DNA of 64,000 nt from Patescibacteria group bacterium (lineage in GTDB: Bacteria; Patescibacteriota; Patescibacteriia; Patescibacteriales; UBA12465): NCBI GenBank assembly GCA_041651355.1, contig JBAZJK010000001.1, positions 293,883-357,882 on the forward strand, written 5' to 3'. The notes under the pieces were generated by a model, which saw nothing but the letters and a program-made list of their open reading frames with translations, did not search any database and was not told the DNA's origin. The translations under genes were made by a program, and so were the position numbers. Shown here in pieces: positions 1,875 through 62,218 of this stretch; the first letter of the stretch is position 1, and every line of letters begins with the position of its first letter.

Positions 1875-4800
1875 ATGTCCTTCGTCCATCTCCATAACCA
1901 CACCCATTATTCCTTGCTTGACGGTCTGACTAAGATCGATGAGCTGGTTAGCTATGTGAAGGAACAGGGCTCGCCGGCGGTCGCTATCACCGATCACGGT
2001 ACTATGTATGGCGTGATAGAATTCTACCAAAAATGCCAGAAGGCCGGGATCAAGCCGATTATCGGTGTGGAAACTTATCTCGCCCCTGGATCCCGGCATG
2101 ACAAGAATATCAAAAGCGATGGCCGCGCCCATCATCTCCTCTTGCTGGCGAAGAACAATACTGGCTATAAGAACCTGATCAAATTAGTCTCATCCGCCCA
2201 TCTCGAAGGCTTCTACTATAAGCCGCGGATCGACTGGGAGCTTTTGAAAGAACATAGCGAAGGCTTAATTGCTTGTTCAGCCTGTTTGGCGGGTGAGATA
2301 CCGCGACTGATCATGGCTGACAAGTTGGCGGAAGCGAAAAAACGGATTTTAGAATATAACGATCTCTTTGGCCAAGGGAATTTTTTCTTAGAGATAATGA
2401 GCCATCCGGAATTAGAGGAGCTTGATAAAGTTAATCCCCAGCTGATTAAATTTTCTCGAGAGCTTGGTATACCCTTAGTGGCGACTAATGATAGCCATTA
2501 TTTGAAAAAGGATGATGCGGCGGCTCAAGATATTCTCTTGTGCCTGCAGAATAAGAAGAAGGTCAAGGATGCCGACCGGATGAAGATGAACGGCGATTAC
2601 TCCGTTAGGCCGAACAGCGAGATGATCGCGGCTTTCAAGGATACTCCAGAGGCAATCTCTAATACTTTGAAGATTGCAGAGATGTGTAATGTGGAATTGG
2701 ATCTAGGTAATATCCAGCTGCCTCATTTCGAAGTGCCCGCTGGCTTTGATGGCAATTCCTATCTCCAAGATCTCTGTGAAAAAGGGATTAAGAAGCGCTA
2801 TCCGAAGCTGAGCAAGGAAGAATTGAAACCGATCAAGGAAAGGCTTAACTATGAATTAGGGGTTGTCGCTAAGATGGGCTGGCCTTCATATTTCTTGATC
2901 GTTGCCGATTTCGTCAATTGGGCGAAAGACAATAAGATCGTCGTCGGTCCGGGCCGCGGCTCGGCTGCCGGCTCCCTGGTTTGTTATCTGACCGGTATCA
3001 CCAACCTCGATCCTTTGGCCTATGACCTATTATTCGAACGTTTCCTTAATCCCGAGCGTATCTCCATGCCTGATATCGATATGGATTTTGCTGACGCCCG
3101 GCGGGATGAGGTCCTAGATTATGTCGGGGATAAATATGGCCATGACCACGTCGCCCAGATCATCACTTTCGGGACTATGGCGGCTCGGGCGGCCGTGCGC
3201 GATGTCGGCCGGGTTTTAGATTATCCCTATGACTATTGCGATAAGCTGGCCAAGAATATCCCGATGCTGACGAAATTGGACAAAGCCTTGAAAGAGGCTC
3301 CGGATTTGAAAGAAATGTATAATAGCGACCCTGAAGCTAAAAGGATTTTAGATTTTGCCAAACGTTTGGAAGGTGTGTCTCGCCATGCCTCGACGCATGC
3401 TTGCGGGGTCGTGATTACCAAACAGCCTTTGACCGATTACGTTCCCATCCAATATGCTTCCTCCTCGGACAAGACGATCATTTCCCAATATTCTTTACAC
3501 CCGATCGAAGATCTTGGCCTATTGAAGATGGATTTTTTAGGCCTCAAGAACCTGACGATTATCGAATCGGCCTTGAAGATCATAAAGAATACGCGCGGAT
3601 TGGAGATAAATATCGATGAGATTCCGCTAGCTGATAAGCTGACATATGAATTATTCCAGAAAGGCGAGACGACCGGCGTCTTTCAGTTCGAATCTTCCGG
3701 CATGAAACGTTATCTGCGCGAGCTAAAGCCGACGGAGTTTGAAGATATCATCGCTATGGTCGCCCTGTATCGCCCCGGTCCGATGGAATGGATTCCGGAT
3801 TATATTGCCGGCAAGCATCAAATCAAGAAAGTCGCCTATCTCCACCCCAAGTTAGAAGGAATATTGAATAAGACTTATGGGGTGGCCATTTATCAGGAAC
3901 AGGTGATGCAAATCGCCCGCGATCTGGCCGGTTTTAGTATGGGCGAGGCTGATGTCCTCAGGAAGGCGGTGGGCAAGAAGATTGCCTCCTTATTGGCCGA
4001 GCAGAAAGAGAAGTTCATTGAAGGCTGCGTGAAGAATGGTATCTATAAAGAACTGGCGGAAAAGGTTTTTTCTTTCATTGAGCCTTTTGCCGGTTATGGT
4101 TTTAACCGTTCTCATGCTGCCTGCTACGCCTTAATCGGCTACCAGACTGCTTATCTTAAAGCCCATTGGCCGGCGGAATTCATGGCCGCGCTTTTAACTT
4201 CCGACCAACATGATAGCGACCGGGTAGCGATCGAGATTGATGAATGCCGCAAGATGGGGATTAAGATAATGGCGCCTGATATTAATGAATCTTTTGCCTC
4301 CTTTACCGTCGTCACGGCCGGCACTAAAGAAAATCGGGCAGTCGCGGCCGGTGAGAAGGTCGAGACGATCCGTTTCGGTTTAAACGCCGTCAAGAACGTG
4401 GGTGAGCATATCGTGGAAGTAATCATCAAGGAAAGGAAGCAGAATGGCAGTTATGTGGATTTATTCAACTTTCTAGAGAGGATCACCGACAAGGATTTGA
4501 ACAAGAAATCTTTAGAGAGTTTGATCAAGAGCGGAGCTCTGGACGCTTATGGCGAAAGAGGCTTCCTGCTCCACAATCTAGAGCGCCTTTTGACTTTCAA
4601 TAAGGAAATTTCTAAAGCGCAGGATTCTCGGCAAAGTAGCCTGTTTTCTGAACCGATTTTTGGCGCTCTCAATCGCCCGCGGCTGGAAGAAGCCTTGCCA
4701 ATTGCCAAAGGCGAAAAGTTAGCCTGGGAGAAAGAGCTTTTGGGTTTATATATTTCCGAGCATCCAGCCAGCACCCTTTGGCCATATTTATCGGGTTGGG

Positions 4801-5462
4801 CTAAGCCACTCTCTAGCCTGGGACAGTATCGCCAAGAAGAAGGAGTCGTCTGCGCCGGTGTCATCGCTAATATCAAAAAGATTATTACCCGGAAGAACGA
4901 ATCGATGTTGTTCGTGAAGATCGAAGACGCCGTGAGCAATATCGAGCTTTTGGTTTTTCCTTCGCTCCTGAAGGAAACGCCGCTTTTATGGCAAGAAGGC
5001 CAAGCAATTATCTGTCAAGGCAAAGTGTCAGAGAAAGATCAGGATTTAAAGCTCTTGGTTAACAAGGCGGCCTTGATCAATCCTAATGACCCTCAGGCTT
5101 CAGTCGATGATTTTAAGCGCCTGATGCTAGAATATAAACCGCGTCCCAGCTTTTATCGCGGCGACAGGAATAATGATAGCCATCATCAGATAGCGCCTGT
5201 TAAAACTAAGCCGGCGGCGCCGGCGAAAGCCGATCCTAACTTAGCAGTTTTAAAAATCACCCTGCCAATCTCCTTGCCGGCAGCGGAACTGCAAGAATTA
5301 AAAAATATTTTAAGCTCTAACCCGGGCGGCAGTGCCGTTTATTTCCGTTTGCGCTCGGATGAGAAGGATAAGGTGATCAAAACCGCTTTCCTGGTGGACA
5401 ATAACGAGTCTTTGCGCCGCGTTATTTCCGAACGCCTCGGTCCTAAGATTTCCGTCGCTTAG
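1875..5462 (+). CDS. dnaE: DNA polymerase III alpha subunit
   Basis: 1195 aa. PHP-domain N-terminus MSFVHLHNHTHYSLLDG. Pol III alpha core motifs GPGRGSAAGSLVCYLTGIT and PDIDMDF. OB-fold-like C-terminal part. Confidence 0.95.
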   Translation: MSFVHLHNHTHYSLLDGLTKIDELVSYVKEQGSPAVAITDHGTMYGVIEFYQKCQKAGIKPIIGVETYLAPGSRHDKNIKSDGRAHHLLLLAKNNTGYKNLIKLVSSAHLEGFYYKPRIDWELLKEHSEGLIACSACLAGEIPRLIMADKLAEAKKRILEYNDLFGQGNFFLEIMSHPELEELDKVNPQLIKFSRELGIPLVATNDSHYLKKDDAAAQDILLCLQNKKKVKDADRMKMNGDYSVRPNSEMIAAFKDTPEAISNTLKIAEMCNVELDLGNIQLPHFEVPAGFDGNSYLQDLCEKGIKKRYPKLSKEELKPIKERLNYELGVVAKMGWPSYFLIVADFVNWAKDNKIVVGPGRGSAAGSLVCYLTGITNLDPLAYDLLFERFLNPERISMPDIDMDFADARRDEVLDYVGDKYGHDHVAQIITFGTMAARAAVRDVGRVLDYPYDYCDKLAKNIPMLTKLDKALKEAPDLKEMYNSDPEAKRILDFAKRLEGVSRHASTHACGVVITKQPLTDYVPIQYASSSDKTIISQYSLHPIEDLGLLKMDFLGLKNLTIIESALKIIKNTRGLEINIDEIPLADKLTYELFQKGETTGVFQFESSGMKRYLRELKPTEFEDIIAMVALYRPGPMEWIPDYIAGKHQIKKVAYLHPKLEGILNKTYGVAIYQEQVMQIARDLAGFSMGEADVLRKAVGKKIASLLAEQKEKFIEGCVKNGIYKELAEKVFSFIEPFAGYGFNRSHAACYALIGYQTAYLKAHWPAEFMAALLTSDQHDSDRVAIEIDECRKMGIKIMAPDINESFASFTVVTAGTKENRAVAAGEKVETIRFGLNAVKNVGEHIVEVIIKERKQNGSYVDLFNFLERITDKDLNKKSLESLIKSGALDAYGERGFLLHNLERLLTFNKEISKAQDSRQSSLFSEPIFGALNRPRLEEALPIAKGEKLAWEKELLGLYISEHPASTLWPYLSGWAKPLSSLGQYRQEEGVVCAGVIANIKKIITRKNESMLFVKIEDAVSNIELLVFPSLLKETPLLWQEGQAIICQGKVSEKDQDLKLLVNKAALINPNDPQASVDDFKRLMLEYKPRPSFYRGDRNNDSHHQIAPVKTKPAAPAKADPNLAVLKITLPISLPAAELQELKNILSSNPGGSAVYFRLRSDEKDKVIKTAFLVDNNESLRRVISERLGPKISVA

Positions 5463-5511
5463 GTGGTAGCTGATAAATTTTGTTTTTAATTTAAAAATTT
5501 GTTATACTTAA

Positions 5512-5534
5512 ATCAAGTGAAGCTTGATTTTTTT
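5512..5534 (+). terminator. Rho-independent terminator after dnaE
   Basis: ATCAAG / CTTGAT stem, 5-nt loop, followed by a T run. Confidence 0.6.
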
Positions 5535-5572
5535 ATGCGCAAAAATTTTTTATATTTTAATTTTTCCATACT

Positions 5573-7153
5573 ATGCCTCCAGTGAAAAAAACTAAAGACT
5601 CTAACCCTAAAAGCTCTAAGTCAGCTCCGCTTGCTAGTAAAAAAGCGAAGCCGAAAGCGGCTAAGAGATCCAAGCCGAAGACTAAGGCGGAAGTGGAAAT
5701 CTTAAAGCCTATCAAACCGAAGAAAGTCGCTCAGGCGATCGCGGTCGAAGTGGCTGAAGATAATTTTAATGCTAGCGCCTTCAATGACTTGCTCGCGAAT
5801 CCAAATTATCAAGCTCCTGAAGAGGAAAATGTTAATCCGCCGGCGATCGAGATGGAAGAGCCTTTAGTCGCCGACGATAAGGGTTTGGATAAGCAGGATA
5901 AGTTTTTTACCCAGTTGGCTCAAGAGATTCAGACGGCGAAGGAAAATCCTCAAGAGGCAGGGAATGAAGCGGCGGTAGCGGCTGATAAGTTTGTAGGTGA
6001 GACCAAGCATTTCAAAAAATCTGCCGGCTTGTACCGTCGTTTAGTTATTAAATTCGTCCTAGCAGTCGCCGTCTTAGTCTTAGTGGTTGCTTATTTTTCC
6101 TTTTCTAAATTAACCTTGCTCATCACTCCTAAGACCGAGCATGTCGGCACCACTTTAGAGCTAGCTGTCTATGATCCGAGTGCGGGCGAGCAGAACCAGG
6201 CTAGCAGTACGGCCACTTTGATGAAAGGGCGACTTAAGAATCTCGGTGTCAGCGCTTTTAAATCCTATCCGGCGGGGGGCGAAGAAATCTTAGGGGAAGA
6301 GGTGGCAGGACGAGTGACTCTAATTAATAATTATAATAAGGACCAGGCTTTAGTGGTCAAAACTAGACTGCTTAGCCCGGATGGCAAATTATTCCGCTTG
6401 CAAGAAGCGGTTAATATTCCCGCCGGCGGGAAGACTGAAGCGGCGATTTATGCCGATGAACCTAGCCAGGAGATGGCAATCGCGCCGACTCGGTTTTCAA
6501 TCCCCGGCCTGTGGGCTGGCCTCCAGGATAAGATCTATGCAGAAAGTTCGGAGAAATTCGTCTATCAGCACAAGATTAAGAAATATATCAAGCCGAGCGA
6601 TCTCGAATTAGCCACTAAGGATATGGCTAACCACCTTTTAGCCCTGGCTCAAGGCCAGGCGGCTGATGAGTTCAACGAAGATTCAATTGCAGTCTATAGT
6701 ATAGATGATAGCCAGGCGACGAGCACTTTTGATTCTAAAGTCGGGGATTATAAGGATAATTTCAATTTGACGGCTACCAGCTCGGTCACTATGGTTTTCT
6801 TTCCTAAGAAAGAAGCGGATGAGTTGATTAAGGAGCGTTTGAAATTATCAGTGCCGGATGACAAGGAATTAATCTCTTGGGATAAGGACCCGGTTTATAC
6901 TTTGGAAAAATATGACCCAGCCACCAAGATTGCGACCGTCAAGGTGGAACTCAATGGCTTGATGGCGCTCAAGAAAGATTCAGAATTGATTGATCGTAGC
7001 AAGCTGGTCAACCTTAATCGGGAACAGATTAAGGAATATTTGGATAATTTTCCGGAAATATCTTCCTACGAATTGAAGTTATCGCCTTCATTCATTAATA
7101 AGGCTCCAGGCTTAGTCGACCGTATCCAGATAAAGATCAAGGCGCCCCAGTAG
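5573..7153 (+). CDS. Hypothetical membrane-anchored protein (Lys/Pro-rich N-terminus, single TM, large extracytoplasmic domain)
   Basis: 526-aa ORF. KPK-rich N-terminus. TM segment LVIKFVLAVAVLVLVVAYFSF. No motif recognised. Confidence 0.6.
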   Translation: MPPVKKTKDSNPKSSKSAPLASKKAKPKAAKRSKPKTKAEVEILKPIKPKKVAQAIAVEVAEDNFNASAFNDLLANPNYQAPEEENVNPPAIEMEEPLVADDKGLDKQDKFFTQLAQEIQTAKENPQEAGNEAAVAADKFVGETKHFKKSAGLYRRLVIKFVLAVAVLVLVVAYFSFSKLTLLITPKTEHVGTTLELAVYDPSAGEQNQASSTATLMKGRLKNLGVSAFKSYPAGGEEILGEEVAGRVTLINNYNKDQALVVKTRLLSPDGKLFRLQEAVNIPAGGKTEAAIYADEPSQEMAIAPTRFSIPGLWAGLQDKIYAESSEKFVYQHKIKKYIKPSDLELATKDMANHLLALAQGQAADEFNEDSIAVYSIDDSQATSTFDSKVGDYKDNFNLTATSSVTMVFFPKKEADELIKERLKLSVPDDKELISWDKDPVYTLEKYDPATKIATVKVELNGLMALKKDSELIDRSKLVNLNREQIKEYLDNFPEISSYELKLSPSFINKAPGLVDRIQIKIKAPQ

Positions 7154-24508: not shown

Positions 24509-24579
24509 TCGGGGATCGTCTAATGGTAGGACAGCAGGTTCTGGCCCTGCTAATCGGGGTTCAAATCCCTGTCCCCGAG
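24509..24579 (+). tRNA. tRNA-Gln (anticodon CTG)
   Basis: Folded by hand. Acceptor TCGGGGA/TCCCCGA (U1:A72 as in bacterial tRNA-Gln). D arm GTCT-AATGGTA-GGAC. Anticodon arm GCAGG-TTCTGGC-CCTGC. T arm CGGGG-TTCAAAT-CCCTG. Discriminator G. CCA not encoded. Confidence 0.85.
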
Positions 24580-24719
24580 CACCTATATAAAAACGAGCAG
24601 AAATGCCCGTTTTTATTATGTTTAATTAGTTCGAAAATAACATCACATTTTTTTATCTTTAGCAAATGCTCTGATTTTATTGACTTAAAAAAGTTCGAAT
24701 CCCTTTGCCTATTTTTTAT

Positions 24720-24764
24720 TTGACAGCCGTTTTGTTAAAAAGTATCATATCAATATAAATTGAT
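24720..24764 (+). promoter_or_regulatory. Promoter plus candidate ArsR operator
   Basis: TTGACA (24720-24725), 17-nt spacer, TATCAT (24743-24748). Immediately followed by the inverted repeat ATCAAT-ATAA-ATTGAT (24749-24764), 11 nt before the arsR start. Confidence 0.55.
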
Positions 24765-24775: not shown

Positions 24776-25090
24776 ATGAAAGCAAAATGTTGTACGAATA
24801 AAAAGCTAACCGAGGAATTTTCTAACCTCGCTAAGTTTCTACGGATTATCAGTGACGATAATCGTTTAAGAATTTTATGCTTACTCAAAAATGGGGAACG
24901 CTGTGTTTGCGAAATATATCCTAACCTTGATTTATCTCAAAATCTTGTTTCTAGTCATTTAAAAGTTATGCTTGATTTTGGCTTGCTTAAAATTAGACAA
25001 GAATGGAAGAAAAACTATTACTCTATTAATCCAATAATATTTAAAAAATATAATTTATCATTAACCAATTTCTTTAAAAACTATGAATAA
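24776..25090 (+). CDS. arsR: ArsR/SmtB-family transcriptional repressor
   Basis: 104 aa. Winged HTH. LSDDNRLRILCLL and CVCEI metal-site motif. Confidence 0.8.
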   Translation: MKAKCCTNKKLTEEFSNLAKFLRIISDDNRLRILCLLKNGERCVCEIYPNLDLSQNLVSSHLKVMLDFGLLKIRQEWKKNYYSINPIIFKKYNLSLTNFFKNYE

Positions 25091-25388
25091 GCAAATTACC
25101 TCGATTCAAGTTTTGGGCTCCGGTTGCCCAACTTGTAAAAAACTATTTGAATTAACTCAAAAAGCAGTTGTTGAATTAGAGTTAAAAACAGAAGTTGAAT
25201 ATATTACCGATATTCAAAAGATTATCGAGCTTGGTGTGATGTCATCTCCGGTTTTAACAATTAACGGTAAAGTGGCCTTAGTCGGCCAATTACCCGGTCT
25301 AGAAAAGATAAAAGAATTGCTTGCTTTAAACAGCCAACCAAAGATAGAAGAATCTATTAGTAGTTGTTCTTGTGGTGGTAAGTGCTAA
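25083..25388 (+). CDS. Thioredoxin-fold redox-active disulfide protein (small, CxxC)
   Basis: 101 aa. VLGSGCPTCKKL CxxC near the N-terminus. C-terminal CSCGGKC. Confidence 0.75.
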   Translation: MNKQITSIQVLGSGCPTCKKLFELTQKAVVELELKTEVEYITDIQKIIELGVMSSPVLTINGKVALVGQLPGLEKIKELLALNSQPKIEESISSCSCGGKC

Positions 25389-25396
25389 ATAAAAAT

Positions 25397-26377
25397 ATGG
25401 ACATTTTTTACCCTATACAATGGTTGGCGGATTTAGTAAGTTACAATTTATTAGGATTAGTTAAAGATTCTTATTTAGCTAATGCTGTTAATTTTTTTAT
25501 TTACGACACGATAAAAATTGGGCTTTTATTGTTAGTTATAAACTTGGTAATGGCAGCTGTAAATTATTATTTTCCCATGGAAAGGGCTAGGGATATTTTG
25601 ACTAAGAAGCGTTGGTTGGGTATGAATTATCTAATAGCGGCTTTACTTGGTATAGTCACCCCGTTTTGTTCTTGTTCTTCTATCCCGCTATTTATTGGCT
25701 TTATGGCTGCTAGAATACCGCTAGGCGTGACCTTTGCCTTTTTAATTAGCTCACCACTTATTAATGAATCTTCATTATATTTATTTCCAGCGATGTTCGG
25801 CATGAAAGTAACTATTCTTTATAATTTATTTGGGTTAGCGATTGCGGTTTTAGGCGGAATGCTTATACAAAAATTAAAATTAGAAAAATACGTAAAGCCC
25901 GAATTTTTGAATATTAAGTCACGAGCTAAAATGGAGACGACTATTAACGGGGATAAGCCTAAATTTAAAAAACTTCTCAAAGATTTTTGGCTAGATGGTT
26001 TTGCTTTAACTAAAAAAATATATCCTTACGTAATCTTAGGTGTTGGCGTTGGAGCTATTATTCATGGTTTTATTCCTAGTGATATAATTGGGCAATATTT
26101 GTCAGCCAAATCACTATGGACAGTTCCATTAGCAGTTATTTTTGCCGTTCCTCTGTATGCTAATTCTGTAACTGTTTTGCCAATAATGGAAGCCTTGGTT
26201 GGTAAGGGTGCCCCCCTAGGTACCGTTTTAGCTTTTATGACGGCAATCGTTACCTTGTCGCTGCCAGAGGCGATAATAATAAAAAAAGTGATGCGTTGGC
26301 CGCTTTTATTAATCTTTTTCGGTATCACAACGATTGGAATTATAATAATGGGTTATCTATTTAATATAATTTTATAA
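25397..26377 (+). CDS. COG0701-type permease, ArsP-like (PFCSCS motif)
   Basis: Polytopic. TPFCSCSSIPLF motif characteristic of this permease family. The ATG at 25397 is preferred over the GTG at 25382. Confidence 0.7.
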   Translation: MDIFYPIQWLADLVSYNLLGLVKDSYLANAVNFFIYDTIKIGLLLLVINLVMAAVNYYFPMERARDILTKKRWLGMNYLIAALLGIVTPFCSCSSIPLFIGFMAARIPLGVTFAFLISSPLINESSLYLFPAMFGMKVTILYNLFGLAIAVLGGMLIQKLKLEKYVKPEFLNIKSRAKMETTINGDKPKFKKLLKDFWLDGFALTKKIYPYVILGVGVGAIIHGFIPSDIIGQYLSAKSLWTVPLAVIFAVPLYANSVTVLPIMEALVGKGAPLGTVLAFMTAIVTLSLPEAIIIKKVMRWPLLLIFFGITTIGIIIMGYLFNIIL

Positions 26378-26386
26378 AATTAAATT

Positions 26387-26857
26387 ATGAAGAAAAATAT
26401 ATTTCTCTTTATTACTTTAGGGGCGCTCATCTTAACCCTAACAGGCTGTTCTGGCGATCAAAAAATAACCTATTTTAACGAAGATGGTAGTTCCAAAACT
26501 GTAGCAGTAAAAGACATTGTTAAGCCTGATAAAATAGAGGTGTATCTCTTTCATGCTACTCAGCGTTGCGCTACCTGTATTGCCATTGGCCGCCTAGCCG
26601 GCGAAACTGTTAACGAATATTTTCAGCCGGAATTACGAGACGGAAAAATAGAATTTAGAGAAATAAATATTGATCTGCCGGAAAACAAAGAATTAGCCGA
26701 AAAGTTTGGAGCCACCGGCTCAGCCCTGTATACAAATGTTATTGTTAAAGGGCAAGATGCTATTGCGCAGGATGTTAAGGTGTGGCGCTTAACTACAAAT
26801 GAAGAGGCTTTCAAGAGCTATTTAAAAGATAAACTTAATACCCAGTTAGGAAAATAA
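26387..26857 (+). CDS. Lipoprotein with thioredoxin-like CxxC domain (resembles the family annotated as ArsF-like)
   Basis: Lipobox LTLTGCSG. HATQRCATCIAIG CxxC. The family name is recalled from memory and not verified. Confidence 0.5.
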   Translation: MKKNIFLFITLGALILTLTGCSGDQKITYFNEDGSSKTVAVKDIVKPDKIEVYLFHATQRCATCIAIGRLAGETVNEYFQPELRDGKIEFREINIDLPENKELAEKFGATGSALYTNVIVKGQDAIAQDVKVWRLTTNEEAFKSYLKDKLNTQLGK

Positions 26858-26858
26858 T

Positions 26859-27593
26859 ATGGAAATTATAAATAGCCTAATAGATAATTATAATATACCA
26901 TTGCTTTCCGCCTTTCTTTTGGGAATATTAACTTCAATTAGCCCGTGCCCCTTAGCTACTAACATCACGGCGGTTGCCTTTATTTCCAAAGATTTTAAAA
27001 ATCCCGAACGCTCACTTTGGAATGGCTTGTATTATACTTTGGGACGAGCTTTAAGTTATATAATCATCGCCGCCTTAATTTATTTTGGCTTTTCAACTTT
27101 TAAAATAGCCGGAATTTTTCAAGGTTGGGGCGATAAAGTCTTGGGATTGGTAATGATTATTATCGGCCTGTTAATGTTTGGGTTTATAAAAATCAATCTC
27201 AATTTTAAAAGTGAGAAAATAGAAAAAGCTAAAGTTTGGCTGGCTAGACAGGGCTACCTTGGATCATTTCTATTGGGCATGCTCTTTGCATTAGCATTTT
27301 GTCCATATAGCGGTGCTTTATTTTTTGGGGCAGTTATTCCATTAATCATACATTCTCATTCCGGACTACTATTAAGCCCGATATTTGGCTTAGGAACTGG
27401 GTTGCCTGTTGTTATTTTTGCTTTTTTATTAGCTTATAGCACTCAAAAGATTGGCAAGACATTCTCTGTTATACAGAAAATTGAGAAAGTAATGCGGTAT
27501 TTAGTGGCAACTATTTTTATTTTAGTTGGTATATATTATTCTCAATTTTTGTTGTCATATCTTGTCAGTTTTTTTCAACAAATTGGCAAATAA
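26859..27593 (+). CDS. DsbD/CcdA-like transmembrane protein (resembles the family annotated as ArsG-type efflux permease)
   Basis: 244 aa, six TM segments. SISPCPLATN and FCPYSG Cys-Pro motifs, one in each half. Confidence 0.55.
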   Translation: MEIINSLIDNYNIPLLSAFLLGILTSISPCPLATNITAVAFISKDFKNPERSLWNGLYYTLGRALSYIIIAALIYFGFSTFKIAGIFQGWGDKVLGLVMIIIGLLMFGFIKINLNFKSEKIEKAKVWLARQGYLGSFLLGMLFALAFCPYSGALFFGAVIPLIIHSHSGLLLSPIFGLGTGLPVVIFAFLLAYSTQKIGKTFSVIQKIEKVMRYLVATIFILVGIYYSQFLLSYLVSFFQQIGK

Positions 27594-27635
27594 AGTCCGA
27601 AAGCAGTCCCTCCAAGCGAGTAATCATATATAAAA

Positions 27636-27666
27636 ATAGGCTAATTTGTGTCTATTTTTGTTTTTA
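27636..27666 (+). terminator. Terminator after the ars-like cluster
   Basis: ATAGGC / GTCTAT stem (one G-T pair), 8-nt loop, T run. Confidence 0.5.
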
Positions 27667-27669: not shown

Positions 27670-27698
27670 TTGACAAATTATTAATTATATTACATAAT
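27670..27698 (+). promoter_or_regulatory. Sigma70-like promoter
   Basis: TTGACA, 17-nt spacer, CATAAT. Lies 28 nt upstream of the GTG at 27726. Confidence 0.55.
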
Positions 27699-27725: not shown

Positions 27726-28301
27726 GTGAAAATTAAAAATGTTATTTTTTTCGGCTTATTATGGGGAGTAATTTATTTCGGAACCAACAATATAATGCTG
27801 TTCACCGCCCGTGAGTTTCCATTATTTCCATTTGAAAGTAAGATTTCGATGAATGAATATTGGATGATTCCTTACGTTTCTTGGATCATTTATATTGTCG
27901 CTTTTTGTTTATCCATTAAAAAAGAGGCAAGAAAATTTATTTTGTTGGCAACACTTTTAGTGGTTATTCATGCTTTGATATTTATTTTTTACCCAGTTGA
28001 GTTTCCTAGGCATTACGATTTCAATTCGCTTTGCGCGGTAAACAAATTCTTATTAAGTTGCGATAACCCGCGGAATTGCTTTCCCAGCTTGCACGTATCT
28101 TTAATTTTCCTAACATTATTATCCGCTCGATTGCTTGGTATATCAAAAATAATGCGCTACCTCTTTGCGATTTGGGGTGCAGTTATCATGATTTCCGTAA
28201 TCTTTGTGAAACAGCATTACTTGATTGATGTACTGGTCGGAATAATAATGACTACCATTTATTTTTATTTATTTAAAAATAGATTTCGAGAGAGCTTTTA
28301 A
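27726..28301 (+). CDS. PAP2-superfamily membrane phosphatase/transferase (PAP2_C-like)
   Basis: 191 aa, polytopic. FPSLHV and KQHYLIDVLVG motifs. Confidence 0.55.
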   Translation: MKIKNVIFFGLLWGVIYFGTNNIMLFTAREFPLFPFESKISMNEYWMIPYVSWIIYIVAFCLSIKKEARKFILLATLLVVIHALIFIFYPVEFPRHYDFNSLCAVNKFLLSCDNPRNCFPSLHVSLIFLTLLSARLLGISKIMRYLFAIWGAVIMISVIFVKQHYLIDVLVGIIMTTIYFYLFKNRFRESF

Positions 28302-28322
28302 TTGTTGGAGCTCTCTTTTTTA
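28290..28322 (+). terminator. Terminator overlapping the PAP2 gene stop
   Basis: GAGAGCT / AGCTCTC stem, 12-nt loop containing the stop codon, T6 run. Confidence 0.6.
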
Positions 28323-28331
28323 AAATAAAAC

Positions 28332-28400
28332 AGTTCTAATTATATCCCAATTCCTGAGTGAGTAGACAAAATACCGCTTTTCGTGGTATTTTTTGTATAT
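28332..28400 (+). repeat. Intergenic hairpin-promoter module, copy A
   Basis: AGTTCTAAT...TAGACAAAATACCGCTTTTCGTGGTATTTTTTGTATAT. Hairpin ATACCGC-TTTTC-GTGGTAT. Sits directly upstream of the ATG at 28399. Confidence 0.8.
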
Positions 28401-28866
28401 GAATAATTTTTTGGAAAAAATTTTACACATCTTAAGCAAATTAAACATCGCGCCAGTTATATATGGATCTTTTGGCGCATCTCTTTATCTTGGCAATTTC
28501 AAAGAATTTGGAGACATCGATATACTCATCGAGGATAATTATATCTCTAATGACTGGGAAGAGTTTAAGAAAACACTTGAAGTAGACGGCTTTACCTTAA
28601 TTAATGAAAAGGAACATGAATTTGCATTTAACGGTAAGCAAGTCGGATTTGCTGGGAAAAGTATATTAATCAGGGATGGGATAATTAAAGATTATAAAGA
28701 GCTGGTCCGATATAAAGATAAGAATGCCCATACCTTAACCCCAGCCGATTTTTTAAGGGCTTACGAGTTCAGCTTCAAAGATGGATATCGTGTTAATAAT
28801 CGAGCCAAAAACGATCATGACATTATCCTAAAGTTGAAAGATTACATAGCGGCCAATGGTAAGTAG
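28399..28866 (+). CDS. Minimal nucleotidyltransferase-fold protein (antibiotic-NTase-like)
   Basis: YGSFGASLYLGNFKEFGDIDILI, i.e. the GS...DxD NTase signature. 155 aa from the ATG at 28399. Confidence 0.6.
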   Translation: MNNFLEKILHILSKLNIAPVIYGSFGASLYLGNFKEFGDIDILIEDNYISNDWEEFKKTLEVDGFTLINEKEHEFAFNGKQVGFAGKSILIRDGIIKDYKELVRYKDKNAHTLTPADFLRAYEFSFKDGYRVNNRAKNDHDIILKLKDYIAANGK

Positions 28867-28925
28867 TTCCAATTGCATACTAAGCTCTGAGCAGTTTAAA
28901 ATAGCCCTATTTTAGTAGGTATAAT
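28865..28925 (+). repeat. Intergenic module, diverged copy B
   Basis: Begins (T)AGTTCCAAT overlapping the stop codon, as in copy C. Ends in TTTAAA...CCTA-TTTTAG-TAGG hairpin...TATAAT. Confidence 0.55.
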
Positions 28926-28979
28926 TGAAGTTTAAGGTAAATAGTGCCAATATTAAAATAAATAAATCAAAATATAATT

Positions 28980-29612
28980 ATGACCATTTGGGATAATATT
29001 TATAAAAAATATAAAAAGGATGGGCAAGAATACGCTACTTTACAGCCAGGTTTAATTCCGGAGTTTTTAAATTTTATTCAGAAACGGGATTTTAAGATAA
29101 AACAAGTTTTGGATATCGGCTGTGGTAATGGGAAATATTTAATTTTTTTAAAAAGTTTAGGCTTTAAGACCGATGGGATTGATTCTAGCCCGACCGCAGT
29201 GGAAATGACTAAAGAGATTTTAAAAGATGACTCAAATATATTATTAGCTGATATATATAAATATGATTTGCCTAAAGAGCAATATGATCTGGTAATTTCC
29301 ATAGCTGCTATTCATCATGGTTTGAAAGCACAGGTCAATCGAGCCATAAAACAGATTTATCCGGCTCTTTTGCCAGGAGGAAGTTTTTTTGTTACCTTAC
29401 CAGATAATGAAGGCAGTTCACATTGGACTAGCATGGTCGAACATAAGGAAATAGAACCAGGGGTCAGAGCGCCTCTGCATGGCCCCGAGGCAGGTTTGCC
29501 CCACAGCTCTTTTACTAAGGAAGAGATAAAAGAAATGTTTTCTGATTTTGCTAAGGTTGATATGCAACTCTTGGCTGATAGAGGTAGATGGATTATAACT
29601 GGTACAAAATAG
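28980..29612 (+). CDS. Class I SAM-dependent methyltransferase
   Basis: VLDIGCGNGKY motif I. 210 aa. Confidence 0.8.
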   Translation: MTIWDNIYKKYKKDGQEYATLQPGLIPEFLNFIQKRDFKIKQVLDIGCGNGKYLIFLKSLGFKTDGIDSSPTAVEMTKEILKDDSNILLADIYKYDLPKEQYDLVISIAAIHHGLKAQVNRAIKQIYPALLPGGSFFVTLPDNEGSSHWTSMVEHKEIEPGVRAPLHGPEAGLPHSSFTKEEIKEMFSDFAKVDMQLLADRGRWIITGTK

Positions 29613-29682
29613 TTCCAATCTTCTCCCAAACTCCGAACTAGATAGACAAAATACCACTTCTTGTGGTATTTTTGTTATATAT
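29611..29682 (+). repeat. Intergenic hairpin-promoter module, copy C
   Basis: AGTTCCAAT...TAGACAAAATACCACTTCTTGTGGTATTTTTGTTATATA. Perfect hairpin ATACCAC-TTCTT-GTGGTAT. Confidence 0.8.
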
Positions 29683-29697
29683 TTAAAATATAAACTT

Positions 29698-30090
29698 ATG
29701 AATAAAGTTACACACTTTGAATTTCCCTGGGATGATAAGGACAGAGCCAAATCTTTTTATCAAAATGTTTTTGGCTGGAAGCCTTTCGAATGGGAACAAT
29801 TTTCTTATACTAGTTGGCAGACCGGTCCAGTCGATGAAAAGATGCAGCCCACTGAGTTTGGATTTATCAATGGTGGTTCCAGTAAGCGCGATCCGCAGAT
29901 GCCTTATCCAATGTTTTACGTCGATGTGGAGGATATTGACGCGACCCTTGAAAAAATTATCGCTCAGGGAGGCGCGATCGTGAGAGGGAAGACCCCTCTT
30001 GGAGAAAATGGCAGCATGGGTTTCTTGGCTTGGTTTAAAGATTCCGAAGGTAATATTCTAGGTTTGTCCCAATATAAACAATCGGCCTGA
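29698..30090 (+). CDS. VOC-family protein (glyoxalase / bleomycin-resistance fold)
   Basis: 130 aa. VTHFEFPWDDKDRAKSFYQNVFGW N-terminus and FKDSEGNILGL C-terminal motif. Confidence 0.7.
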   Translation: MNKVTHFEFPWDDKDRAKSFYQNVFGWKPFEWEQFSYTSWQTGPVDEKMQPTEFGFINGGSSKRDPQMPYPMFYVDVEDIDATLEKIIAQGGAIVRGKTPLGENGSMGFLAWFKDSEGNILGLSQYKQSA

Positions 30091-30094
30091 TGTT

Positions 30095-30718
30095 ATGAGA
30101 CAAGAGATTATAAAAGAAATAATCGATAATAAATTATTATATATTTCTCCGGATATAGATGAAAAAGATTGGGTGCTGCTAAAAAATAATAGTCGCACGC
30201 CAATTTTTTTAGATACATCAAAATTTATTTCTTTTCCTGAATTATTATATAAGGTAAATCTTTTAGTGATTGATATTATCAAAGATAATTCAATCATTTT
30301 TGATAAAATATTGGGTATCCCTTATGGAGGATTGCCATTTAGTTATGGCGTCACCAATATATTGAAAGCGCCTGGCCTAACAATCAGGAAAGAAGGTTAT
30401 AAAGATTATAGTACTAAAGGGGAGTTGTTGGGTAATTACCAACAAGGGGATAAGGTCCTGATTATTGAAGATGCTACCGTGACAGCTAATACCGTCATGG
30501 GCTTTGTAAACAAATTAAAAGCCAATGCCCTAGAAATCAATGACGTGATTACGATTTTAGATATCGAAAAATCAGCCCAAGCTAACCTAGCTAAGTTAGG
30601 AGTGAATTTGCAGGCCTTATTTACCTGGAAAGAGCTATATGAAAGCTACAAAAAAGAGTATCCTGGTGTTATCACTAGGGATATGGAACTTTTCTTAGAT
30701 GCATTTGTGAGCAATTAG
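30095..30718 (+). CDS. Type I phosphoribosyltransferase (orotate PRTase-like)
   Basis: PRPP-binding loop KVLIIEDATVTANT. 207 aa. Confidence 0.65.
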   Translation: MRQEIIKEIIDNKLLYISPDIDEKDWVLLKNNSRTPIFLDTSKFISFPELLYKVNLLVIDIIKDNSIIFDKILGIPYGGLPFSYGVTNILKAPGLTIRKEGYKDYSTKGELLGNYQQGDKVLIIEDATVTANTVMGFVNKLKANALEINDVITILDIEKSAQANLAKLGVNLQALFTWKELYESYKKEYPGVITRDMELFLDAFVSN

Positions 30719-30756
30719 TTTGGGATACGTATATTTAAAATCAATAATCAAACGAT

Positions 30757-31377
30757 ATGAAATTTTATCTTTCTTCATACAAGCTCGGAGACAGGGTTGG
30801 AGAATTAACCCAGCTTATTAATGGCCTCCCTAAGAGGGCAGTCTATATTCCTAATGCTTTGGATTTTGCTTCCGACCTGGAGAGACGGCAGAAGAGCGAG
30901 GACGGGGATCTGAGCGAATTATCTGTTCTGGGTCTTGGTATCGAACGGGTCGACCTCCGTGATTATTTCGGTAAAAAAGACGAGCTTAAGGAGAAGCTGT
31001 CTGCCTGTGGCCTTATTTATGTCCGGGGCGGTAATGTTTTTGTTCTCAGACAAGCCATGAAACTGAGCGGTTTTGATGACATCTTGAAAGAAATCAGCTC
31101 CCGGAACGATTTAGTTTACGGCGGCTATAGCGCCGGCGCTTGCGTGTTAGCTCCTTCTTTGCGTGGCGCCGAATTAGTTGATGACATAAGTGTTTTTCCC
31201 TATGAAGCTAATGACAGGGTTATTTGGGAAGGTCTTGGTCTTATAAGCTATGCCATCTTGCCTCATTTTCGCTCCGATCATCCAGAATCAGCGGCTATGG
31301 AGAAGGTCTTAGAATTTTATATTTCTTCGAAAATCCCCTTCGTAGCCCTAAAAGATGGAGAGGTTTTAATCTTTTGA
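30757..31377 (+). CDS. Peptidase S51 family (dipeptidase E-like)
   Basis: YVRGGNVFVL and GGYSAGACVLAP nucleophile-elbow motifs. Confidence 0.7.
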   Translation: MKFYLSSYKLGDRVGELTQLINGLPKRAVYIPNALDFASDLERRQKSEDGDLSELSVLGLGIERVDLRDYFGKKDELKEKLSACGLIYVRGGNVFVLRQAMKLSGFDDILKEISSRNDLVYGGYSAGACVLAPSLRGAELVDDISVFPYEANDRVIWEGLGLISYAILPHFRSDHPESAAMEKVLEFYISSKIPFVALKDGEVLIF

Positions 31378-31381
31378 TTAT

Positions 31382-31410
31382 TTGACTTCTTGCCTTTTAT
31401 ATGATATTAT
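31382..31410 (+). promoter_or_regulatory. Sigma70-like promoter for the helicase gene
   Basis: TTGACT, 17-nt spacer, TATTAT. Confidence 0.55.
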
Positions 31411-31481
31411 AGACTATTATAATAATCGGATTCGAATCTCATATTTAAGTGATCTTGAGAAAATCGGGTCACTTATTTTTT

Positions 31482-32744
31482 ATGACTGAAAAAACAAATC
31501 TTGAAGTCGCTTCCCAAGCTAAGCAGGGTTTTAACGATCTCGGAATCAGCGCTTCGATCGTCAAAATAATTACCGGCTTAGGACTTGAGACTCCGACTCC
31601 AATCCAAAGAAAAACTATGCCGCTGGCCTTAGCTGGCCAAGATGTAATCGGCATTGCCCAGACAGGAACCGGCAAAACCTTAGCCTTCGGCGTGCCGATG
31701 ATTGAGCGCTTGGCCCAACTCAAGGGCCAGGGCCTAATCGTCGCCCCGACCCGCGAATTAGCTCTGCAAGTCGAGGAAAGCATCAAAAAGATTGGTCGCC
31801 CCCTAGGCTTGCGGACAGCGGTCTTAATAGGCGGCGAAGCTCTAGACCGCCAGCTTTTTTGCTTGCGCAAAAAGCCGCATATAGTTATCGCTACTCCGGG
31901 GCGCCTGATTGATCATCTTAAACGTCGGACCTATCGCTTAGACCAGGTTAAGGTCATCGTGCTAGACGAAGCCGACATGATGTTAGACCTTGGTTTTGCT
32001 CCCCAGATTGCCGAAATAATGGAACAGGCTCCCTCAGAGCGCCAGACCATGCTTTTTTCGGCTACTATGCCAGCAGCCATCGTCAAGATTGCGGCTAAAT
32101 ATATGAAGACGCCGGTCAGTATCGAGGTGGCGCCTCCAGGAACGACAGCCGAACAGGTTGATCAGGAGATATTTATCATTAATGGTGAAGAACGCCTGAC
32201 GCATCTGCAAAAGATCTTGGCCCGCTATTCTGGCTCAGTCTTGGTGTTCGTCCGTACTAAGCACGGAGTGAAAGCGTTGACGATCAAATTGAAAGCGGCT
32301 GGTCATCGGGCGGTAGAAATCCATTCCAATCTTTCTCTCGGCCGTCGAAAGGCTGCTTTGGAGAGCTTTAAGAATAAGAAGGAACGAATCTTAGTGGCCA
32401 CTGATGTCGCCGCTCGCGGTTTGGATGTGAAGGGAATAGAATTGGTGGTTAACTATAACCTACCGGACTGTTCGGAAGATTATGTCCATCGTATCGGCCG
32501 GACCGGCCGAGCCGGCCAGCCGGGCAAGGCGATTTCTTTCGCGACAGCCGGTGAAAGCCGGGAGATAAGAGCAATCGAAAAGTTGATTAATAAGAATATC
32601 AAGCGGACGGAGTTCGTGAAACTAATCAAGCCGGTTCATCCCGCCACAGCTAAAAAGAGAAGGCGCTTCCAACCCAAACCGGCCAAAAAGGGTCAAGCTC
32701 CTTTTGCCAAGCGCTTCCGCAAGCCAAAGTATAGAAAAAATTAA
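31482..32744 (+). CDS. DEAD-box ATP-dependent RNA helicase with a basic C-terminal tail
   Basis: Q motif TPIQ, AQTGTGKT, DEAD, SAT, HRIGRTGRAG. The ATG at 31482 is preferred over the GTG at 31449. Confidence 0.9.
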   Translation: MTEKTNLEVASQAKQGFNDLGISASIVKIITGLGLETPTPIQRKTMPLALAGQDVIGIAQTGTGKTLAFGVPMIERLAQLKGQGLIVAPTRELALQVEESIKKIGRPLGLRTAVLIGGEALDRQLFCLRKKPHIVIATPGRLIDHLKRRTYRLDQVKVIVLDEADMMLDLGFAPQIAEIMEQAPSERQTMLFSATMPAAIVKIAAKYMKTPVSIEVAPPGTTAEQVDQEIFIINGEERLTHLQKILARYSGSVLVFVRTKHGVKALTIKLKAAGHRAVEIHSNLSLGRRKAALESFKNKKERILVATDVAARGLDVKGIELVVNYNLPDCSEDYVHRIGRTGRAGQPGKAISFATAGESREIRAIEKLINKNIKRTEFVKLIKPVHPATAKKRRRFQPKPAKKGQAPFAKRFRKPKYRKN

Positions 32745-32750
32745 TATTAA

Positions 32751-32789
32751 TAGACAAAATACCGCTTTCCGTGGTATTTTTGTTATATA
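32751..32789 (+). repeat. Intergenic hairpin-promoter module, copy D
   Basis: TAGACAAAATACCGCTTTCCGTGGTATTTTTGTTATATA. Lies 6 nt after the helicase stop and 17 nt before the next ATG. Confidence 0.8.
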
Positions 32790-32805: not shown

Positions 32806-33282
32806 ATGCTAGATCTCAAACAGCTCAAAGACTTCTTGGCCAAAGCTAAAAAAGCCGGCTATGCTAGCGGCGAAACGGCCGTTAAGGCAGTTGAGGAAGA
32901 TAAGTCTAAGACTATTGTTTTTGAAGAAGGAGACTTTAAGTATCATGATAATTATTTTGGCGGCGAACCCTACGGAGGCAGGGAAGTTGTCTTTTTTAAG
33001 GGTGAGCCAGTCTATCTGATGGTCTATTATGGTTTGGTTAAAGAAGATATTAGCGACTTCAAGGCAGTCTATCGGATCCTGCAGAAATCGCTATCTTTGA
33101 TTCCAGCTGACTACCCATATCGCGGGCCCAAGGAATTTAGTGAAGGGGATTATAGATACCAGAATGATTTTATGGGCGAGATTAATGATTTTTCCGGCGA
33201 AGAGCTGATAGAATTCCAAGGCCGGGAAATATATCGGGCTAAGTATATCGGCGGTTTGGTCGACCAAAGGAAAGAAGAATAA
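32806..33282 (+). CDS. Hypothetical protein
   Basis: 158-aa ORF preceded by module copy D. No catalytic motif recognised. Confidence 0.6.
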   Translation: MLDLKQLKDFLAKAKKAGYASGETAVKAVEEDKSKTIVFEEGDFKYHDNYFGGEPYGGREVVFFKGEPVYLMVYYGLVKEDISDFKAVYRILQKSLSLIPADYPYRGPKEFSEGDYRYQNDFMGEINDFSGEELIEFQGREIYRAKYIGGLVDQRKEE

Positions 33283-37867: not shown

Positions 37868-38039
37868 TTATGTGCCAAGGCTAAAAAAGAGAGTTTATTG
37901 TAATCGCTTGTGGATAAGTTAAGCTAGCAATAAATGATTTTATTTTTTTAAATAAAAAAGACTGATTTTTATGATCAGTCCTTGAACCTTACACGGAGTT
38001 TTATTTTATATAGATTAAAATCATTCTTTCACTCTAGTA

Positions 38040-38069
38040 TTGACAAAATAACTATTTTAATGTTATAGT
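38040..38069 (+). promoter_or_regulatory. Sigma70-like promoter
   Basis: TTGACA, 18-nt spacer, TATAGT. Confidence 0.5.
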
Positions 38070-38107
38070 TTTTGTCTAAACGGTTCTTTTTTATAAAACC
38101 CTTGAAA

Positions 38108-58527: not shown

Positions 58528-58602
58528 TCCCGGGTAGCGCAGCGGTAGCGCAGTTGGCTGTTAACCAATTGGTCGTCGGTTCGAATCCGACCCCGGGAGC
58601 CA
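58528..58602 (+). tRNA. tRNA-Asn (anticodon GTT), CCA encoded
   Basis: Hand fold. TCCCGGG / CCCGGGA acceptor. GCGC-AGCGGTA-GCGC D arm. GTTGG-CTGTTAA-CCAAT anticodon arm. GTCGG-TTCGAAT-CCGAC T arm. G73. CCA. Confidence 0.9.
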
Positions 58603-60195: not shown

Positions 60196-60231
60196 ATATG
60201 TATTTTTAGATAACAAAAAGGGACGGTCCTG

Positions 60232-60337
60232 AGCATCCAACTAAATATTGCCAAAAGCAATACTCGTCAGCAGAACCATCCCTTTTTGGGGGCGAGTATA
60301 AAAAAAGCTTTTGGGCTGTGTTATTTAGTTGGATGCT
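60232..60337. repeat. Nested inverted-repeat structure upstream of the recombinase gene
   Basis: 16-bp perfect inverted repeat AGCATCCAACTAAATA / TATTTAGTTGGATGCT (60232-60247, 60322-60337). It encloses the inner repeat CGAGTAT / ATACTCG and the small hairpins TTGC-CAAAA-GCAA and CCC-TTTTTGG-GGG. Confidence 0.7.
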
Positions 60338-62210: not shown

Positions 62211-62218
62211 TAAATTTA

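Follow-up and report, generated by a model that had tools for sequence, protein, structure and literature searches.

A hairpin-containing promoter-like motif at probable boundaries of portable gene units 3' of tRNA-Gln in a Patescibacteria-group bacterium

The 64-kb stretch of DNA analysed here (the window; 64,000 nt, with positions counted from its first nucleotide) lies in a 372-kb contig of a Patescibacteria-group bacterium and contains three near-identical copies of a 39-nt motif, each ahead of a small gene. The motif is probably a fused terminator-promoter that forms the left end of portable units of one to a few genes, which would have piled up 3' of a tRNA-Gln gene through serial integration. 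As DNA, it would act as a sigma-70/sigma-A promoter with a T(T/A)GACA -35 element, an 18-nt spacer, a TG (often TRTG) extended -10 and a TATTTT hexamer. As RNA transcribed from upstream, it would form a 10-bp hairpin followed by a U-rich run, like an intrinsic terminator. One short element would in this way block read-through into a gene and restart transcription for that gene. Direct repeats between the units, in which a GTTCCAAT arm precedes the final ~17 nt of tRNA-Gln in more or less degenerate form, would be att-type scars. The integrations were probably carried out by large serine recombinases of the kind found in one related array and beside a tRNA-Asn gene. An earlier note on this DNA had proposed either a promoter with a palindromic operator or hairpin defining a small regulon, or terminator-promoter cassette boundaries that travel with the genes. 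The cassette-boundary proposal is the better supported, through boxes that come from the tRNA-Gln 3' end and units that recur, and serial integration anchored at tRNA-Gln would provide its mechanism.

The pattern TAGACAAAATACCRC-N5-GTGGTATTTTTGT, with 0-2 mismatches allowed, matches the plus strand of the window at 28363-28395, 29643-29675 and 32751-32783, and it has 0 matches in 100 dinucleotide-preserving shuffles. All copies share the stem ATACCRC/GTGGTAT around the loops TTTTC, TTCTT and TTTCC; the copy at 29643 has an A-T pair where the other two have G-T. The coordinates, stems, loops and the change from G-T to A-T are all as the earlier note gave them. Consensus scans mark every copy both as a promoter (TAGACA-18-TATTTT with TG) and as a 10-pair hairpin with a T-run. 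These two features are superimposed: the 10-bp stem AAAATACCRC/GTGGTATTTT starts with the final base of the -35 and runs through the -10, and the TG of the extended -10 lies one base upstream of TATTTT in all three copies. Read as a terminator, each copy has 10 pairs, of which 3 are G-C, and a T-run. The RNA folds of the three copies range from -10.4 to -13.6 kcal/mol, with z values of -3.7 to -5.0 against shuffles.

Copy A (28363-28400, plus strand) has its -35 TAGACA at 28363-28368, its hairpin at 28368-28392, its TG at 28384-28385 and its -10 TATTTT at 28387-28392. The ATG at 28399 follows TATTTT by 6 nt, which is a leaderless geometry. Copy C (29643-29682, plus strand) begins 30 nt past the stop of a methyltransferase gene and has its -35 at 29643-29648, its hairpin at 29648-29672 and its -10 at 29667-29672, ahead of an ATG at 29698. 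Copy D (32751-32789, plus strand) begins 6 nt past the stop of a DEAD-box helicase gene, with the -35 at 32751-32756, the hairpin at 32756-32780, the -10 at 32775-32780 and an ATG at 32806. A covariance-model search of the 64-kb window returned only these three copies and ordinary promoters, and ~10 kb of extra flank contained none. Rfam matched nothing but tRNAs, both in the window and related loci at gathering thresholds and in 24.4-33.4 kb at relaxed ones. A dispersed repeat of the miniature inverted-repeat transposable element (MITE) or repetitive extragenic palindrome (REP) type was considered and rejected, as there are no dispersed copies in the window or the ~10-kb flank and no Rfam family.

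The motif also occurs in other genomes. Related loci and contigs compared with the window are labelled L followed by a number. In a scan of 185,579 species genomes, one genome per species, the exact motif is rare, with 8 loci. Metagenome-assembled genomes (MAGs) of Doudnabacteria, Paceibacterota and Saccharibacteria carry TTGACAAAATACCAC-N5-GTGGTATTTT with a perfect TTGACA -35. In addition to the TAGACA group, this perfect form is found in at least eight unrelated sequence contexts of other candidate phyla radiation (CPR) lineages, and TTGACA is present in 14 of 29 aligned sites. A metagenome scan used the palindrome alone as the query, with the upstream flank left unconstrained, and retrieved at least 120 loci. 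Among the matches listed, most are ordinary ACCGC/GCGGT terminator hairpins of unrelated organisms. Of the matches listed, 44 fall outside the ACCGC/GCGGT class, and 12 of these have T[TA]GAC abutting the palindrome in register; the 79 ACCGC/GCGGT palindromes, whose right arm lacks the TG, have it in no case. Chance would give ~0.2-0.3 abutting T[TA]GAC, indicating that the -35 goes with arms of the kind in which the TG of an extended -10 is usually found. Scanning viral contigs for the palindrome yielded one unrelated GCGG-type terminator only.

Position relative to genes is just as regular. Of 27 sites, 26 have a co-oriented open reading frame (ORF) of at least 80 aa whose start lies -1 to 103 nt past the -10, and most sites have the end of an upstream ORF or tRNA 6-90 nt ahead of them. 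The link to gene starts that had been proposed from the window extends, together with the conserved block itself, to other CPR lineages. At three loci an intact tRNA lies 2-6 nt before the motif: tRNA-Gln in L043 and L063, and tRNA-Gly in L005. Leaderless geometry, with an ATG 6-8 nt past TATTTT, is found at window copy A, L114 and L027. The TTGACA-type sites of other CPR lineages (L002, L004-L007, L053 and L104) have a strong GGAGG Shine-Dalgarno sequence. In the window, no Shine-Dalgarno sequence was recognisable at the gene starts at 28399, 29698, 30095, 30757, 31482 and 32806.

The search pattern that yielded most of the sites prescribes the stem; the variants come from profile searches. 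In L063 and L005 the stem is ATAGCAC/GTGCTAT, with C:G changed to G:C at the free 'n' of TGn, a change also present in L076, and in L088 the stem is ATACCAT/ATGGTAT, with C:G changed to U:A. In the left arm A and G alternate, and both A-U and G-U pairs are tolerated. In all, two pairs are changed on both sides (C:G to G:C in 3 sequences, C:G to U:A in 1) and G-U occurs in 4, in a stem mostly fixed by the retrieval pattern. The stems TGGTATATT, TGCTATATT and GGTATTAT in L139, L143 and L058 are wholly different. The variants in L063, L005, L088, L139, L143 and L058 all retain TTGACA, 17-18 nt spacing and a -10-like hexamer. The simplest account would be a double constraint, in which RNA polymerase fixes the right arm (TRTGn and TATTTT) and pairing fixes the left arm. 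Such a constraint would explain the conservation across phyla without a transcription factor.

The second component of the boundaries is a box that resembles the 3' end of tRNA-Gln. The tRNA-Gln(CTG) gene lies at 24509-24580 on the plus strand (ARAGORN and Rfam), anchors the variable zone and ends in ATCCCTGTCCCCGAGCA, the apparent source of the boxes. AGTTCYAAT occurs at 28332, 28865 and 29611, and begins a 30-nt direct-repeat family (D2) at 28328, 28861 and 29607. Neither this 9-mer alone (4 found against 1.5 expected) nor the 13-mer CCCAAWYTCCKRR is significant in the window; the box is convincing because of its profile and the comparative series. Box A (28331-28362, plus strand; nhmmer E = 3.9e-5), a member of repeat family D2, consists of the arm GTTCTAAT and the degenerate tRNA-Gln 3' core ATCCCAATTCCTGAG. 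Box C, TAGTTCCAATCTTCTCCCAAACTCCGAACTAGA (29610-29642, plus strand; E = 7e-5), overlaps the TAG stop of the methyltransferase gene. As the earlier note had it, A, B and C share the box, and the TAG stops of the ORFs ending at 28866 and 29612 overlap it. The same note took B for a diverged copy, and this was right for the box only. Boundary B (28865-28925, plus strand) has its box at 28865-28894, followed by a different sequence lineage, the other left-end type TTAAAA-18-TATAAT with half of its hairpin deleted. This downstream part is homologous to L003 1381-1507 (72% over 131 nt), where the hairpin AAAATAGCCCT/AGGGTTATTTT is intact.

When the flanks of all TAGACA-type sites are aligned, the box ends in ...ATCCC-nnnn(n)-CCGAGCA, which is the tRNA-Gln 3' end, and within this subfamily the motif always starts 2-3 nt past the tRNA-Gln-derived core. 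L043 has an intact tRNA-Gln, 2 nt and then the motif, and in L055, L114 and L094 a perfect or near-perfect tRNA 3'-end fragment lies ahead of the motif. The box profile reveals arrays of 2-7 direct-orientation copies 3' of tRNA-Gln in L003, L027, L055, L058, L063, L094, L114, L139 and the window. Every box in these arrays is followed by an A-tract, a hairpin and a T-tract, and the hairpin sequences are many and different. The common degenerate box, GTTCCAAT-nnnn-ATCCCAAACTCCGAGC, agrees with tRNA-Gln 3' ends at 11-13 of 16 positions and with 44 other tRNAs at 10 of 16 or fewer. A profile built from degenerate boxes only has tRNA-Gln genes as its sole matches, but at ~1 bit, and the ungapped count of identical positions is more informative than this profile. 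In one L114 box, the GTTCCAAT arm is fused to the tRNA 3' 17-mer in perfect form. The arrangement is not confined to tRNA-Gln: in Saccharibacteria L005, tRNA-Gly is followed by the motif, and ~870 nt further on by a degenerate tRNA-Gly 3' fragment with a motif variant. The arrays and the tRNA-derived boxes appear to be the signature of serial site-specific integration at a tRNA. Since units recur in different contexts, the composite module is a junction of two units: the right end of one (the arm and the tRNA-derived core, often giving the stop codon) and the left end of its successor (the putative terminator-promoter).

L055 contains at 3064-6480 three copies of a gene-free unit of ~230 nt, composed of a tRNA-Gln 3' end or degenerate box, a hairpin, ~200 nt and a perfect tRNA 3' fragment. 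These repeats may be the remnant of recombinase-bearing elements or a minimal att-only insert.

The variable zone anchored at tRNA-Gln is conserved across related Patescibacteria genomes. In the window, GC content drops from ~46% to ~33% right after tRNA-Gln and stays low until ~30.8 kb. The region has the features of a genomic island: an intact tRNA at one end with repeats of its 3' end, a GC content of ~33% against ~46% elsewhere, and gene content that varies behind a conserved flank. L139, L141 and L143 have tRNA-Gln at the same place behind the conserved left flank, sharing GreA, AsxRS, Pyr_excise and tRNA-Gln with the window at 56-79% amino-acid identity. The small genes after the tRNA are wholly different in these three loci and include NUDIX, HD, extracytoplasmic function (ECF) sigma factor, YHS and peptidase S51 genes and an ArsR operon of another type. 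In L114, two additional units separate the orthologous ArsR operon from the tRNA side. Particular units also recur. The motif and its VOC gene are found in the window and, in a different context, in L076, with 78% nucleotide identity from 7 nt before TAGACA to the VOC stop. Box, motif and HD gene recur in L003 and L058 (83% nucleotide identity), and motif, PEP-utilizers-domain gene and box in L027, L114 and L055. The DUF5680 gene lies within the tRNA-Gln variable zone of three relatives without the motif, directly behind another gene. A second strain with another cassette order was not found, the sole other assembly (Logan SRR8542065; L136 and L138) being the same strain with no alternative arrangement. 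Its contigs break just after the ABC permease at tRNA-Gln and again ~50 nt into the VOC gene at motif copy C, which is consistent with repeat-induced assembly breaks at the modules.

Large serine recombinases are the likely agents of integration. L027 encodes a 401-aa serine recombinase (Resolvase and Zn_ribbon_recom domains) inside its array, and the 3' end of the gene reads across a box. In the window, the sole recombinase gene (58561-60195, minus strand) adjoins tRNA-Asn (58528-58602, plus strand). Its product of 544 aa is a homolog of the L027 enzyme, and its ORF runs into the tRNA-Asn gene. In both cases (L027 3583-3656 and window 58561-58602) the recombinase ORF crosses the att core into tRNA-derived sequence, so that the junction supplies the final 15-25 codons and the enzyme would have one C-terminus when integrated and another when excised. 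The sequence ACGTAGATTAAGCGAGGTTAAAGCCTCG directly follows tRNA-Asn in the window and is also found after tRNA-Gln in L139 and after a tRNA-Gln-type box in L043; this shared arm suggests that the recombinase family uses the tRNA-Gln site. The window enzyme is a candidate for a trans-acting integrase family that may move the integrase-less units, and single cassettes may be mobile at present. Pfam detected no tyrosine recombinase or Phage_integrase domain among the called genes of the window, in agreement with the earlier remark that it has no recognisable integron integrase.

The tRNA-Asn gene begins a second low-GC island, which occupies 58528-64000 of the window and continues to ~73 kb in L134. 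It carries the serine recombinase, a rolling-circle Rep (REP_ORF2-G2P) and a Zot-like ATPase, with HNH, DNA methylase and GmrSD genes beyond. From this content it looks like an integrated filamentous-phage-like or plasmid-like element.

Several observations weigh against a fused terminator-promoter on serially integrated units. Promoter and terminator activity are both predicted from consensus and position alone. The window copies have TAGACA as their -35, and the second T of a -35 element is normally important. As a terminator, the motif has a stem with no more than 3 G-C pairs and a broken T-run. Ahead of the copy A module lies a strong separate terminator (28288-28321), which makes the hairpin redundant there. 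Stem conservation and the 98% pairing are biased by the retrieval pattern, and only ~6 variant sites are informative. The boxes of the window are degenerate, agreeing with the tRNA core at 10-11 of 17 positions, and the motif copy at 32751 has no box. No box comes after the window VOC unit or after the HD units. A right-end box was sought at 30.1-31.5 kb, and the sole candidate is the inverted 17-mer AACCCTGTCTCCGAGCT inside the start of the peptidase S51 gene (30782-30798, minus strand), with 3 mismatches to the tRNA-Gln 3' end and ~0.14 such matches expected by chance in the window. Pfam found no recombinase in the tRNA-Gln zone of the window (24.5-34 kb). At the tRNA-Asn element, a search over 14.5 kb for a far-end repeat (attR) of the tRNA 3' end found none.

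The same features can be explained without one or another part of this proposal. If the motif were only an intrinsic terminator, possibly bidirectional, its likeness to TTGACA/TATTTT would be incidental to AT-rich sequence. The scan does mark all three copies as terminators, the motif stands directly behind tRNAs and stop codons, compensatory changes occur in its stem, all other boxes are followed by unrelated terminator-like hairpins, and unrelated metagenomic contigs often contain generic AAAATACCGC...GCGGTATTTT hairpins. An incidental likeness is, however, hard to reconcile with T[TA]GAC abutting 12 of 44 against 0 of 79 palindromes among the matches listed, where fewer than 0.3 are expected, or with perfect TTGACA in at least eight unrelated contexts. 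The -35, the 17-18 nt and the -10 persist in the variants whose stems differ, a co-oriented gene follows at 26 of 27 sites, three ATGs lie 6-8 nt past the -10, and copy A is already behind an independent strong terminator. A terminator without promoter function is thus unlikely. The palindrome could instead be an operator: ATACCRC-N5-GTGGTAT in the spacer would bind a dimeric transcription factor that co-regulates the downstream genes. A perfect dyad overlapping a promoter is what many repressor sites look like, the sequence is strongly conserved across CPR lineages, and the window, L006/L007 and L114 have an ArsR-family gene no more than a few kb away. However, the downstream genes are unrelated (the 155-aa unknown, VOC, DUF5680, HD, PEP-utilizers and small membrane proteins), and DUF5680 occurs in three relatives without the motif. 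The palindrome keeps a constant register with the -35 and -10 and is never elsewhere in the promoter, TRTGn and the -10 account for the conservation of the right arm, and the stem changes are compensatory or G-U, pointing to RNA pairing. A conserved regulon would also not be expected at 8 loci in 185,579 species genomes. ArsR itself was rejected as the regulator of the motif: it is the only helix-turn-helix (HTH) regulator nearby, and its operon has a different palindrome of its own (24749-24764). Of the promoter proposal in the earlier note, the hairpin-promoter is plausible and supported by the -35/-10, the gene starts and the leaderless ATGs, and the operator with its small regulon is not supported; co-regulation through the palindrome is very unlikely.

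The other two explanations concern mobility. TAGAC and the palindrome could be part of an att site bound by an integrase, for example a serine-recombinase dyad. Throughout the TAGACA subfamily the motif lies 2-3 nt past the tRNA-Gln-derived core, and TAGAY at the same offset opens the other, recombinase-adjoining arm (window tRNA-Asn, L139 tRNA-Gln and L043). Serine-recombinase crossover sites are imperfect dyads, which also favours such a role. It is made decidedly improbable by the copy at 32751 and most TTGACA-type copies, which have no adjoining box or tRNA, and by the many boxes that are followed by unrelated hairpins without TAGAC. Moreover, homology of shared units continues through the palindrome, identical half-sites would give no attP/attB asymmetry, and the loop sequences vary freely between copies. 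Alternatively, site-specific mobility may play no part, and a duplicated intergenic promoter would lie in a fast-evolving region whose content varies by homologous recombination or deletion between repeats. The lack of a recombinase in the tRNA-Gln zone, the unit ends without boxes, the degenerate boxes of the window and the unchanged arrangement in the Logan assembly of the same strain would all fit. The boxes, however, are specifically tRNA-Gln-like and occur only 3' of tRNA-Gln, in direct orientation, in many genomes. The hybrid box of L114 (arm and perfect tRNA core), the recombinase gene that overlaps a box in L027 and the same architecture at tRNA-Gly in Saccharibacteria L005 also argue against an account without site-specific mobility, which we regard as improbable.

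Beyond a fused terminator-promoter at the left end of integrated units, a wider proposal can be made tentatively: Patescibacteria may possess a tRNA-anchored, integron-like gene-capture platform, in which self-expressed single-gene cassettes, each with a bounding site derived from a tRNA 3' end and a fused terminator-promoter of its own, enter successively at tRNA-Gln (tRNA-Gly in Saccharibacteria) and are mobilised in trans by large serine recombinases encoded elsewhere, such as in the tRNA-Asn element. This is possible, and we would not yet call it probable. The closest described case is that of the ssrA-specific genomic islands of Dehalococcoides (McMurdie et al. 2011, PMC3146451). There, too, tandem islands lie 3' of a small-RNA gene and are bounded by direct repeats of its 3' end, with an extra conserved motif just upstream of each repeat that does not match the RNA gene. 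A serine recombinase of ~540 aa is encoded on the reverse strand beside attL, and integrase-less members were interpreted as cis-mobilizable. The target here is tRNA-Gln (elsewhere tRNA-Gly or tRNA-Asn) instead of ssrA, and the host is a member of the Patescibacteria. The units are far smaller, often one gene of 0.5-1.3 kb and mostly without an integration module, and each opens with a putative fused terminator-promoter. Islander-type islands and the tycheposons of Prochlorococcus (Hackl et al., bioRxiv 10.1101/2020.12.28.424599) likewise involve integration at tRNA 3' ends in a streamlined genome, with newcomers that push older elements deeper and with partial tRNAs and degraded elements scattered over a hypervariable island. 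Tycheposons carry tyrosine recombinases and replication modules, whereas the recombinases linked to the present arrays are serine recombinases only and most units consist of cargo only.

The likeness to integrons lies in the single-gene units, boundaries that start at or overlap the stop codon, a hairpin repeat at each boundary and content that varies between strains. In contrast to integrons, the window has no IntI or tyrosine recombinase and the array is anchored at a tRNA. There are no paired R''/R' (RYYYAAC/GTTRRRY) and L''/L' sites, and the stem is short and perfect (10 bp) instead of a long imperfect hairpin. No reverse-complement partner of AGTTCYAAT was found downstream in the window sequence. 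With neither IntI nor the attC site pairs present, membership in the integron/attC class was rejected. Integron cassettes are described as usually promoterless (PMC11014356), whereas the units here each appear to bring their own promoter. Compared with known promoters, the motif resembles the extended -10 (TGn/TRTGn) class, with TTGACA, 17-18 nt and a TG one base before TATTTT, TATATT or TATTAT, often with a T two bases further up. It differs from ordinary members in its self-complementary spacer and -10 and, in the window copies, in TAGACA. Its A-tract, stem-loop and T-tract directly behind genes and tRNAs are those of an intrinsic terminator. Promoter-terminator overlap was very recently reported as widespread in bacteria, and a preprint describes terminator sequences that act as TGn promoters (10.64898/2026.02.12.705533). 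In comparison with such coupling, hairpin and promoter here overlap completely, the former lying within the latter; the block as a whole is conserved across CPR classes and tied to the ends of probable mobile units. Neither such arrays nor this promoter design turned up for CPR bacteria in the searchable literature.

There is hardly any experimental knowledge of how transcription starts and stops in CPR/Patescibacteria, or of how accessory genes enter their tiny genomes. If the fused terminator-promoter at unit ends is real, the 39-mer would provide a concrete, testable promoter/terminator design for CPR bacteria, and a natural case of complete promoter-terminator overlap that serves as an insulator between mobile genes. 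The hot spot at tRNA-Gln and the boundary sequence would allow accessory cassettes to be catalogued across thousands of CPR genomes. A candidate pair of recombinase and site would become available for genetic tools in organisms that now have very few. The gene-capture platform, if it exists, would be a system analogous to integrons with a different recombinase, a different site and self-expressed cassettes.

The units of the window follow one another on the plus strand. Directly 3' of tRNA-Gln, a terminator-like hairpin, AAAAACGAGCAGAAATGCCCGTTTTT, was read from the sequence at 24588-24618; in L114 the same hairpin comes after a box and not after the tRNA, and the orthologous ArsR operon is next, as in the window. 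Unit 1 (24776-27593; GC ~33%) is this operon and encodes, according to Pfam, ArsR (HTH_5), a thioredoxin-like protein, an ArsP permease, a 156-aa protein and DsbD_2. Its ArsR has 84% amino-acid identity to the L114 ortholog. A variant boundary box, AAGTCCGAAAGCAGTCCCTCCAAGCGAGTAATC, follows at 27593-27625 and resembles L094 2489-2520, which is there followed by the TAGACA motif. Next come a hairpin at 27632-27660 and a separate promoter, TTGACA-17-CATAAT, at 27670-27698; the stretch 3' of the box is an 85% match to L003 726-771. Unit 2 is a PAP2 gene (27726-28301; Pfam) with its own terminator hairpin at 28288-28321. Unit 3 is a 155-aa gene (28399-28866), labelled nucleotidyltransferase (NTase)-like in the earlier note, that has no Pfam hit. 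Unit 4 encodes a class I S-adenosylmethionine (SAM) methyltransferase (28980-29612; Pfam). Unit 5 contains, by Pfam, a VOC/glyoxalase gene (29698-30090), a phosphoribosyltransferase-like gene (30095-30718) and a peptidase S51 gene (30757-31377). It is followed by the DEAD-box helicase gene and then, 3' of motif copy D, by the DUF5680 gene (32806-33282).

Some minor features of this region deserve mention. At 24691-24709, ~110 nt past tRNA-Gln, AAGTTCGAATCCCTTTGCC resembles the T-arm and 3' end of a tRNA and may be a further decayed att scar. The ArsR operon is preceded by a TTGACA-17-TATCAT promoter (24720-24748) and, just 3' of its -10, by the perfect inverted repeat ATCAAT-ATAA-ATTGAT (24749-24764), ahead of the ArsR start at 24776. 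This palindrome is likely to be the ArsR operator and unrelated to the palindrome of the 39-nt motif. A hairpin with a T-run, GTGATCTTGAGAAAATCGGGTCAC-TTATTTTTT, lies at 31449-31481 in the leader between the helicase promoter (31382-31410) and the ATG at 31482, and it may be an attenuator or a cold-shock-type leader. The covariance-model match at 38032-38071 was rejected as a copy of the motif; it is an ordinary TTGACA-18-TG-n-TATAGT promoter, TTGACAAAATAACTATTTTAATGTTATAGT (38040-38069), that has only the self-complementary AT-rich spacer (AAAATA/TATTTT) in common with it and is without the hairpin's GC core. Near-consensus promoters also serve the tRNA genes (24448 and 58471), and together with the one at 38040 they indicate that this lineage uses canonical sigma-70-type promoters.

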